A DNA stretch of 64,000 bases, taken from Escherichia coli (GTDB taxonomy: Bacteria; Pseudomonadota; Gammaproteobacteria; Enterobacterales; Enterobacteriaceae). Location of the stretch: NCBI RefSeq assembly GCF_003334335.1, contig NZ_QOWQ01000008.1; one strand, written 5' to 3'. A model generated the notes under the pieces. That model was given only the letters and a program-made list of their open reading frames with translations. It searched no databases and was not told the DNA's origin. The first letter of the stretch is position 1. Each line of letters opens with the position of its first letter. Both the position numbers and the translations under genes were made by a program. Positions 61,230 to 64,000 of the stretch are shown one piece after another.

Positions 61230-64000
61230 ATGAGCGGAAAACCGGCGGCGCGTCAGGGTGACATGACGCAGTATGGCGGTAGCATTGTTCAGGGTTCAGC
61301 CGGGGTACGTATTGGTGCCCCCACCGGCGTGGCCTGTTCGGTGTGCCCCGGCGGAGTGACGTCCGGCCATCCGGTCAATCCCCTGCTCGGTGCAAAGGTC
61401 CTTCCCGGTGAAACCGACATCGCCCTGCCCGGCCCGCTGCCGTTCATCCTCTCCCGCACCTACAGCAGTTACCGGACAAAAACGCCCGCGCCGGTGGGGA
61501 GCCTCGGCCCCGGCTGGAAAATGCCTGCGGATATCCGCTTACAGCTGCGCGATAACACACTGATACTCAGTGATAACGGCGGCAGAAGCCTGTATTTTGA
61601 GCACCTGTTTCCCGGTGAGGACGGTTACAGCCGCAGCGAGTCACTGTGGCTGGTGCGCGGCGGCGTGGCGAAACTGGATGAAGGTCACCGGCTGGCCGCA
61701 CTCTGGCAGGCGCTGCCGGAAGAACTCCGCTTAAGTCCGCATCGTTATCTGGCGACAAACAGTCCGCAGGGGCCGTGGTGGCTGCTCGGCTGGTGTGAGC
61801 GGGTGCCGGAAGCGGATGAGGTGCTGCCTGCGCCGCTGCCGCCGTACCGGGTACTGACCGGGCTGGTGGACCGCTTCGGGCGCACACAGACGTTCCACCG
61901 CGAAGCCGCCGGTGAATTCAGCGGCGAAATCACCGGCGTGACGGATGGTGCCTGGCGTCACTTCCGGCTGGTACTGACCACGCAGGCGCAGCGGGCAGAA
62001 GAAGCCCGGCAGCAGGCCATTTCCGGCGGGACGGAACCGTCCGCTTTTCCTGATACCCTGCCGGGTTACACCGAATATGGCCGGGACAACGGCATCCGTC
62101 TGTCTGCCGTGTGGCTGACGCACGACCCGGAATACCCGGAGAATTTACCTGCCGCGCCGCTGGTGCGCTATGGCTGGACGCCACGCGGCGAACTGGCGGT
62201 GGTGTATGACCGTAGTGGCAAACAGGTGCGCAGCTTTACTTACGATGATAAATACCGGGGCCGGATGGTGGCGCACCGTCACACGGGCCGGCCGGAAATC
62301 CGTTACCGTTACGACAGCGACGGGCGGGTGACAGAACAGCTAAACCCGGCAGGCTTAAGCTACACGTATCAGTATGAGAAAGACCGCATCACCATCACCG
62401 ACAGCCTGGACCGCCGTGAAGTGCTGCACACGCAGGGCGAAGCCGGGCTGAAGCGGGTGGTGAAAAAGGAACACGCGGACGGCAGCGTCACGCAGAGTCA
62501 GTTTGACGCCGTGGGCAGGCTCAGGGCACAGACGGATGCCGCAGGCAGGACAACAGAGTACAGCCCGGATGTGGTGACGGGCCTCATCACGCGCATAACC
62601 ACGCCGGATGGCAGGGCATCGGCGTTTTACTATAACCACCACAACCAGTTAACGTCAGCCACCGGGCCTGACGGGCTGGAATTGCGCCGGGAATATGATG
62701 AATTGGGCCGTCTGATTCAGGAAACTGCCCCTGACGGCGATATCACCCGCTACCGTTATGATAATCCACACAGTGACTTACCCTGCGCAACGGAAGATGC
62801 CACCGGCAGCCGGAAAACCATGACGTGGAGCCGTTACGGTCAGTTGCTGAGCTTCACCGACTGTTCCGGTTATGTAACCCGTTATGACCATGACCGCTTC
62901 GGGCAGATGACGGCGGTGCACCGCGAGGAAGGGCTGAGTCAGTACCGCGCATACGACAGCCGTGGACAGTTAATTGCCGTGAAAGACACGCAGGGCCATG
63001 AAACGCGGTATGAATACAACATCGCCGGTGACCTGACCGCCGTCATTGCCCCGGACGGCAGCAGAAACGGGACACAGTACGATGCGTGGGGAAAGGCCGT
63101 CCGTACCACGCAGGGCGGGCTGACGCGCAGTATGGAATACGATGCTGCCGGACGGGTCATCCGCCTGACCAGTGAAAACGGCAGCCACACCACCTTCCGT
63201 TACGATGTACTTGACCGGCTGATACAGGAAACCGGCTTTGACGGCCGCACACAGCGTTATCACCACGACCTGACCGGCAAACTTATCCGCAGCGAGGATG
63301 AGGGTCTGGTCACCCACTGGCACTATGACGAAGCAGACCGCCTCACGCACCGCACCGTGAAGGGTGAAACCGCAGAGCGGTGGCAGTATGACGAACGTGG
63401 CTGGCTGACAGACATCAGCCATATCAGCGAAGGGCACCGGGTGGCGGTGCATTACAGGTATGATGAGAAAGGCCGGCTGACCGGTGAGCGTCAGACGGTG
63501 CATCACCCGCAGACGGAAGCACTGCTCTGGCAGCATGAGACCAGACATGCGTACAACGCGCAGGGGCTGGCGAACCGCTGTATACCGGACAGCCTGCCCG
63601 CCGTGGAATGGCTGACCTACGGCAGCGGTTACCTGGCAGGCATGAAACTCGGCGACACACCGCTGGTGGAGTACACCCGCGACCGCCTGCACCGGGAAAC
63701 GCTGCGCAGCTTCGGCCGTTATGAACTCACCACCGCTTATACCCCTGCCGGGCAGTTACAGAGCCAGCACCTGAACAGCCTGCTGTCTGACCGCGATTAC
63801 ACCTGGAACGACAACGGCGAACTCATCCGCATCAGCAGCCCGCGCCAGACCCGGAGTTACAGCTACAGCACCACCGGCAGGCTGACCGGCGTTCACACCA
63901 CCGCAGCGAATCTGGATATCCGCATCCCGTATGCCACAGACCCGGCAGGTAACCGCCTGCCCGACCCGGAGCTGCACCCGGACAGCACCCTCAGCATGTG
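61230..64000 (+). CDS. rhsB: Rhs-family protein, 5' part only (PAAR motif N-terminus plus YD-repeat shell; C-terminal toxin tip lies beyond window)
   Basis: Open frame from ATG at ~61230 to window end, MSGKPAARQGDMTQYGG...; repeated YRYD/YEYN/YDAWG YD motifs; GC clearly higher than flanks; absent from ORF track because no stop inside window; A/B paralogue assignment rests on position after nikR. Confidence 0.85.
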   Translation, partial: MSGKPAARQGDMTQYGGSIVQGSAGVRIGAPTGVACSVCPGGVTSGHPVNPLLGAKVLPGETDIALPGPLPFILSRTYSSYRTKTPAPVGSLGPGWKMPADIRLQLRDNTLILSDNGGRSLYFEHLFPGEDGYSRSESLWLVRGGVAKLDEGHRLAALWQALPEELRLSPHRYLATNSPQGPWWLLGWCERVPEADEVLPAPLPPYRVLTGLVDRFGRTQTFHREAAGEFSGEITGVTDGAWRHFRLVLTTQAQRAEEARQQAISGGTEPSAFPDTLPGYTEYGRDNGIRLSAVWLTHDPEYPENLPAAPLVRYGWTPRGELAVVYDRSGKQVRSFTYDDKYRGRMVAHRHTGRPEIRYRYDSDGRVTEQLNPAGLSYTYQYEKDRITITDSLDRREVLHTQGEAGLKRVVKKEHADGSVTQSQFDAVGRLRAQTDAAGRTTEYSPDVVTGLITRITTPDGRASAFYYNHHNQLTSATGPDGLELRREYDELGRLIQETAPDGDITRYRYDNPHSDLPCATEDATGSRKTMTWSRYGQLLSFTDCSGYVTRYDHDRFGQMTAVHREEGLSQYRAYDSRGQLIAVKDTQGHETRYEYNIAGDLTAVIAPDGSRNGTQYDAWGKAVRTTQGGLTRSMEYDAAGRVIRLTSENGSHTTFRYDVLDRLIQETGFDGRTQRYHHDLTGKLIRSEDEGLVTHWHYDEADRLTHRTVKGETAERWQYDERGWLTDISHISEGHRVAVHYRYDEKGRLTGERQTVHHPQTEALLWQHETRHAYNAQGLANRCIPDSLPAVEWLTYGSGYLAGMKLGDTPLVEYTRDRLHRETLRSFGRYELTTAYTPAGQLQSQHLNSLLSDRDYTWNDNGELIRISSPRQTRSYSYSTTGRLTGVHTTAANLDIRIPYATDPAGNRLPDPELHPDSTLSM

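Follow-up and report, generated by a model that had tools for sequence, protein, structure and literature searches.

What is a gene built like a type VI secretion system (T6SS) effector doing in a region of the Escherichia coli genome that holds no secretion apparatus? The question is raised by a long open reading frame (ORF) at the 3' end of a 64,000-nucleotide stretch of E. coli DNA (assembly GCF_003334335.1, contig NZ_QOWQ01000008.1; referred to here as the window, with coordinates on its + strand throughout), which a sequence-only reading had described as a PAAR-motif Rhs element running off the edge of the window. The frame is the 5' two-thirds of rhsB, a paralogous Rhs element located at its usual site after nikABCDE-nikR. 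It is an already-known gene, described since 1984, and the rearrangement hot spots first recognised were rhsA and rhsB (PMC2935791). We consider it very probable that RhsB is a polymorphic toxin of the T6SS effector type, consisting of a PAAR-repeat N-terminus, a DUF6531 plug, a YD cage, a two-aspartate core (DPIGL...DPLGL) and a Tox-JAB-2 tip, with YhhH as its immunity protein.

The rhsB coding sequence occupies positions 61230 to 64000 of the window and comprises codons 1-923 of 1411. The start codon ATG is located at 61230 with an AGGA Shine-Dalgarno sequence at 61219-61222, seven bases ahead. The translation begins MSGKPAARQGDMTQYGG... (= MSGKPAARQGDMTQYGGSIVQGSAGVRIG...; MSGKPAARQGD) and runs for 923 codons without a stop to the last base of the window, in agreement with the start near 61230 and the sequence given in the earlier reading. 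A 3.4-kb query composed of nikE-nikR and the ORF finds matches somewhere in 5426 of 5426 complete E. coli genomes, with a median of five places per genome because of the Rhs paralogues. Many of these genomes match it at 100%, and there the gene is annotated as rhsB, downstream of nikR. Over 12.4 kb the window shows four base differences from K-12 MG1655, two from RM10410 and four from LR-48. The only difference from MG1655 within rhsB is found at position 61790 (GGC versus GGT) and is synonymous. Searches with 3.4-, 12- and 25-kb queries reveal many phylogroup-A-like genomes that are nearly identical to the window, and none in the collection that matches it exactly over 25 kb. The base differences, together with the intact state of the yrhA gene described below, indicate a K-12-like strain and exclude MG1655 itself.

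Full-length rhsB, taken from a near-identical genome, scores 2643.8 bits over residues 1-1247 against the NCBIfam family RHS_core (NF041261), for which the cut-off is 2000 bits. A chance ORF in GC-rich DNA was considered as another origin of the frame and is rejected by this score. The region past the window was read in the three nearest genomes, where the frame is intact to 1411 amino acids and the element indeed runs on beyond the point at which the window cuts it. The early stop or frameshift that would have marked it as a fragment is absent from all three, and a truncated pseudogene is rejected since rhsB is intact there.

Analysis of the predicted protein reveals the domain order of an Rhs cage. 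Residues 46-123 (61365-61598) form the DUF6531 N-terminal plug of the cage (Pfam PF20148, 1.6e-17), which aligns to plug residues 48-124 of Tse5 (PMC10684867). The plug is followed by the YD/RHS-repeat shell, which spans residues 361-892 in the window (62310-63905), continues past it and is also homologous to the shell of Tse5. The window protein contains 11 Pfam RHS_repeat matches at E<=0.001 in this range, and rhsB matches TIGR01643 (YD_repeat_2x) at 1.4e-40; the YD-repeat shell that had been proposed behind the PAAR motif is thus present, plug included. In the full-length protein the Rhs-associated core TIGR03696 is located at residues 1170-1247, and Pfam RHS (PF03527) is matched as well. 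The nearest genomes carry DPIGL at residue 1221 and PISDIDPLGL, a PxxxxDPxGL boundary, at residues 1238-1247. A DPxGL-type boundary between core and tip had been set beforehand as a test of the Rhs assignment, and it was found at this place. RhsB is assigned to the RHS_core family by the full-length match, the tandem YD/RHS repeats, the PxxxxDPxGL end and the succession of GC-rich core, AT-rich tip and immunity ORF.

The base composition follows the same division. Positions 61230-64000 have a GC content of 0.623 compared to 0.525 for the remaining window, and the GC of the core (0.57-0.68) falls to 0.31-0.41 in the tip and downstream. The claim that the element is richer in GC than its surroundings holds, as does that of a GC-rich core. 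However, the local step is modest, the adjacent nik operon itself having a GC of 0.571, and the sharp contrast is with the intergenic spacer (0.351).

Past the window end, the order of genes in the three nearest genomes is rhsB, yhhH, a short pseudogene fragment, the ISEc1 (H-repeat) transposase gene yhhI, and yhhJ-rbbA, with yhhH overlapping the rhsB stop by 29 nt. The toxin tip and the immunity gene had been placed outside the window, and both are located past position 64000 in these genomes. The 164-residue tip is Pfam DUF4329 (PF14220, 9.2e-39), a family that Zhang et al. (2012; PMC3482391) named Tox-JAB-2 and for which they gave the signature E, H[ST]H, S, D and, as partner, Imm-NTF2-2. 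Exhaustive search gives 757 representatives of the tip family at E<=1e-3. The 42 diverse homologues aligned all have E52, S112 and D115, and 98% of them have H96 and H98; in rhsB numbering these residues are E1299, H1343, H1345, S1359 and D1362. The profile match and the signature place the tip in Tox-JAB-2, and its predicted fold is the JAMM/MPN (deaminase-like) fold of that family. No solved sequence relative of the tip was found, and the tip is predicted to be a JAMM-type metallohydrolase.

YhhH, encoded directly after the tip, belongs to Pfam Imm-NTF2-2 (PF15631, 3.4e-26 over residues 60-127). Of the 5426 complete genomes, 3008 carry one copy of the tip and yhhH module, mostly at an identity of at least 99%. 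YhhH (L002:13838-14221) and its homologues share a conserved N-terminus with K-K and a hydrophobic stretch ending N-x-W-A, which resembles a Sec signal peptide; the maximum Kyte-Doolittle value of this N-terminus in the homologues is 2.04. Because of this signal-peptide-like N-terminus and because RhsB has no transmembrane translocation module, the Tox-JAB-2 tip probably acts in the periplasm of the target cell. The pseudogene fragment between yhhH and ISEc1 (L002:14311-14676) is annotated as 'lyase' in one genome and as 'HEAT repeat domain-containing protein' in two.

The N-terminal end of RhsB is less conventional than the rest of the protein. The 47-residue segment before the plug (61230-61370), analysed by PDB sequence search, Pfam and alignment with Tse5, contains a PAAR-like repeat (residues 2-29, nucleotides 61233-61316) and a CSVCPGG motif. 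The literal PAAR motif noted earlier is real and belongs to this one repeat, but it is not part of a full PAAR domain. The 923-residue protein has no match to Pfam PAAR_motif (PF05488) at E<=10, and the isolated 60-residue N-terminus gives a sub-threshold 16.4 bits (independent E-value 0.011) at model positions 51-69 of 70. Against all PDB sequences, residues 1-47 match PAAR proteins only (9rce_c, 4jiv_D, 4jiw_D and 8gra_J), with alignments to 9rce_c 71-98 (E 8.9e-4) and 4jiv_D 67-93 (E 0.011) among them. Residues 2-29 align in every one of these matches to the last of three PAAR repeats (positions 67-98). A three-repeat cone of about 90-100 residues is absent: the plug starts at residue 46 and leaves about 29 PAAR-like residues, whereas the solved PAAR domains have 93-99. 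These alignments suggest that the N-terminus is one PAAR repeat, PAAR-like and short of a full PAAR domain.

Such proteins have also been read otherwise, and in papers on enterohaemorrhagic E. coli (EHEC) those of the RhsA-D type are listed under 'PAAR domain' proteins (PMC7216683). RhsB would then be a canonical PAAR-Rhs protein, whose complete PAAR domain at the N-terminus alone sharpens and caps the VgrG spike. The succession of a literal PAAR and GD...GG.I..GS..V.IG is the pattern of a PAAR repeat and fits this description. However, we consider it very unlikely given the length of the segment, its alignment to the last repeat only and the Pfam result, and the DNA ahead of the gene leaves little room for it. 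The sequence upstream of the rhsB ATG is AT-rich and non-coding, with stops directly before the ATG, and hidden PAAR repeats upstream were rejected for this reason.

The link of RhsB to type VI secretion comes from its relatives. Among solved relatives, Tse5 ranks first (8cp6, E 3.1e-127), and its shell chain 8cp6_B starts at P48 (PVNPMLG), aligned to P48 of RhsB (PVNPLLG). Cleavage of Tse5 yields a 5-kDa N-terminal fragment (residues 1-47), a shell and a toxin, and the PAAR-like N-terminus of Tse5 is needed for secretion; both T6SS-dependent secretion and killing have been shown for it (PMC10684867). The N-terminus of Tse5, a case like that of RhsB, has been described as 'cryptic PAAR-like' (PMC7376260). 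Homologues of the first 132 residues of RhsB are present in E. coli, Shigella, Salmonella, Citrobacter, Enterobacter and Yokenella. A contig of Salmonella Enteritidis carries tssC, tssB, hcp and vgrG (TIGR03361, 635.6 bits), followed 9 bp later by an Rhs gene whose product begins MSGKPAARQGDMTQVGGPIVQGSAGVLIGAPTGVACSVCP, shares the start MSGKPAARQGDMTQ.GG.IVQGSAGV.IGAPTGVACSVCP with RhsB and matches the window protein at 61% identity across 929 residues. Therefore, the homology to Tse5 and the vgrG-linked Salmonella homologue support RhsB as T6SS cargo. Inspection of the same Salmonella region, SPI-6 (L005:4656-10649), reveals two rhs genes with the RhsB-type N-terminus in tandem after vgrG, with a small ORF between them; the first is an intact ORF of 1509 codons which is uncalled in the stored annotation.

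A function outside type VI secretion would have to be set against these relatives. RhsB might serve in an intracellular toxin/antidote pair affecting stationary-phase viability, or it might be a surface protein that leaves the cell by some other export route. The gene is kept intact in K-12, which has no T6SS, and many Rhs proteins are without signal peptides, their export route having long been unclear (PMC3150448). However, the close solved relatives are all T6SS effectors, and the same N-terminus stands directly after vgrG in Salmonella. A search of RhsB residues 1-330 found no signal peptide and no transmembrane or hydrophobic segment, and direct evidence for another export route was not found. 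We regard such a function as very unlikely.

The delivery of RhsB can be drawn by homology for the polymorphic toxin proposed here. By analogy with Tse5 and the other solved Rhs effectors, the cage would enclose the tip, and the aspartyl autoprotease would cleave RhsB after DPLGL. The PAAR-like residues 1-47 would dock the cage onto the VgrG spike, the T6SS would fire the complex into a neighbouring cell, and YhhH would neutralise the toxin and thereby protect siblings.

Several points weigh against this proposal. Only one of the three PAAR repeats is present at the N-terminus, which also fails the Pfam PAAR model, and the capping of the trimeric VgrG by a single-repeat N-terminus is left unexplained. 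Residues 1-47 of RhsB may correspond to the cleaved N-terminus of Tse5, a correspondence of position and length only, and the Tse5 N-terminal fragment is absent among the PDB matches to RhsB residues 1-47 or 1-132. The Citrobacter and Enterobacter copies with the RhsB N-terminus are orphans too, the 10 kb upstream of them being free of T6SS genes. Neither the window nor the DNA adjoining rhsB contains a vgrG, PAAR, Eag or T6SS gene, and the K-12 and B strains are without a T6SS (PMC3032704, PMC6730261). The literature searched yielded no secretion or toxicity experiment on E. coli RhsB, and the sequence past 64000 is that of near-identical genomes rather than of the source genome. RM10410, the closest genome at the rhsB locus, was inspected at one classical T6SS site, aspV, where it carries a remnant consisting of hcp, vasL and a C-terminal tssM pseudogene (L008:25351-37373). 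In this lineage RhsB may therefore not be deliverable.

The aspV remnant of RM10410 abuts an N-terminally truncated rhs gene (RHS core), a small ORF and an ISAs1 transposase gene, and looks like a deletion ending inside the rhs gene. In the stretch of RM10410 equivalent to the window, from rtcB to rhsB, no T6SS gene is annotated except yhhZ (as tssD), in line with the earlier statement that the region has no T6SS apparatus. E. coli commonly carries orphan effectors at a distance from the T6SS cluster, and the orphan rhsA-D types of EHEC are located outside vgrG islands (PMC7216683).

The window holds a second orphan gene of the T6SS cargo type, separate from rhsB. The yhhZ gene (24679-25857, GC 0.339) encodes a probable Hcp-toxin fusion and lies 36.5 kb upstream of rhsB, close to the distance of about 35 kb given in the sequence-only reading. 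Its assignment as an Hcp protein is clear (TIGR03344, 115.4 bits; Pfam T6SS_HCP, 5.7e-11), and the C-terminal HNH match is weak (Pfam independent E-value 0.013). YhhZ has been classed as a His-Me finger nuclease toxin (PMC5714182), and for the related Hcp-ET1 proteins T6SS2 is the delivery system (PMC6730261). The downstream partner yrhA (25854-26348) is a candidate immunity gene, matching the NCBIfam YrhA family at 122 bits; it is intact (164 residues) in the window and annotated as intact in RM10410. In K-12 MG1655, yrhA is presumably interrupted by IS1. The block formed by yhhZ, yrhA, yrhD and yrhB (24500-27100) is an island of 33% GC in a window of 53% GC.

The absence of a neighbouring apparatus raises the question of whether RhsB is active in this genome today. 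The source strain may have no working T6SS, in which case RhsB would never be exported and the locus would be kept as a recombination repeat and for the protection that yhhH gives against rhsB-armed relatives. This explanation is compatible with RhsB being a T6SS-type polymorphic toxin and concerns only its present-day activity in this genome. We regard it as a serious possibility, a little short of an even chance. K-12 and B strains have no T6SS, the window is free of T6SS genes, and what remains of the aspV cluster in RM10410 is hcp, vasL and a tssM that is truncated and joined to an rhs gene itself truncated. The tip and yhhH module, single-copy in more than half of the complete genomes and nearly invariant in most of these, is also consistent with it. 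However, the window is not K-12 itself: it differs from K-12 at four positions in 12.4 kb, its yrhA lacks the IS1 that we take to be present in MG1655, and no exact genome match was found in the collection. The remnant of RM10410 represents one candidate T6SS site, and thousands of genomes carry an intact ORF, which would be unexpected if the gene were useless, unless gene conversion among the paralogues has maintained it. In addition, most E. coli other than the laboratory strains carry T6SS genes (PMC6730261).

Where a T6SS is lacking, as in K-12, rhsB is a stranded effector. The demonstrated role of rhsB there is that of a 3.7-kb repeat for RecA-dependent rearrangements. We would guess that the locus may also be of use because it retains the immunity gene.

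Since one of three PAAR repeats is kept and E. coli lineages that lack a T6SS still carry intact genes of this type, it is also conceivable that RhsB-type proteins are exported or act otherwise than via a canonical, PAAR-capped T6SS spike, and that the JAMM tip acts on a periplasmic target instead of nucleic acid. Three N-termini might form one PAAR-like cone, or toxin and immunity protein might have a role independent of the T6SS. Taken as a whole, we consider this very improbable.

The spacer between nikR and rhsB (61028-61229) was characterized by its sequence, GC and hairpin coordinates. It is AT-rich (GC 0.35) and contains the AGGA of rhsB and a hairpin at 61039-61068 (GGTCCTTTG...CAAAGGGCC), 12 bases past the nikR stop, with a 9-bp stem including one G-U pair and a 12-nt loop. 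This hairpin has no T-run, and the terminator scan did not report it. A consensus scan of 60900-61400 revealed no convincing sigma-70 promoter or intrinsic terminator.

As a discovery the locus carries little weight, because rhsB is one of the two repeats behind the name Rhs ("rearrangement hot spot"), given in 1984, and the families of its tip and its immunity protein have been on record since 2012. Its value is in annotation. A 3.7-kb repeat of this kind breaks assemblies and mediates duplications, and both rhsB and yhhZ-yrhA mark an orphan module of toxin and immunity gene. The questions it raises are general to this Rhs clade, namely how a single-repeat N-terminus engages VgrG, what the substrate of Tox-JAB-2 is and why such genes are retained in strains without a T6SS.

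Compared with known systems, the locus is that of E. coli K-12 RhsB (rhsB, b3482) with YhhH and the H-repeat YhhI, having the same site after nikR and, in the nearest genomes, the same genes downstream. P. aeruginosa Tse5 (PA2684; H1-T6SS) shares with RhsB the N-terminus of about 47 residues, the DUF6531 plug starting PVNP(L/M)LG at residue 48, the YD cage and the aspartyl autoprotease before the tip, and like RhsB has no transmembrane module. However, the tip of Tse5 is pore-forming whereas that of RhsB is of the JAMM type, and tse5 is associated with the VgrG1c spike. The Salmonella SPI-6 Rhs (L005, 4749-9185) is near-identical to RhsB in its first 40 residues and has the same plug and cage, but it is located inside a T6SS cluster, 9 bp downstream of vgrG, with a different tip and immunity gene, while rhsB is an orphan. 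The prePAAR and transmembrane-domain effectors, P. protegens RhsA (7Q97; E 2.7e-85) and Photorhabdus Tre23 (7PQ5; E 3.7e-38), are homologous in cage and plug; in contrast to RhsB, with its 47 residues and no hydrophobic segment, they have about 230-300 residues with transmembrane segments before the plug (PMC10684867). The canonical PAAR proteins of V. cholerae (4JIV) and E. coli (4JIW) share GKPAAR.GD...GG.I..G...V.IG with RhsB in their third repeat, and have three repeats where RhsB has one, below the Pfam threshold. Finally, the Tox-JAB-2/Imm-NTF2-2 pair (Zhang et al. 2012) has the same tip family, signature, predicted JAMM-like fold and immunity family. The published guesses for Tox-JAB-2 are a nuclease or RNase, whereas the N-terminus of YhhH suggests a periplasmic target for the RhsB tip instead.

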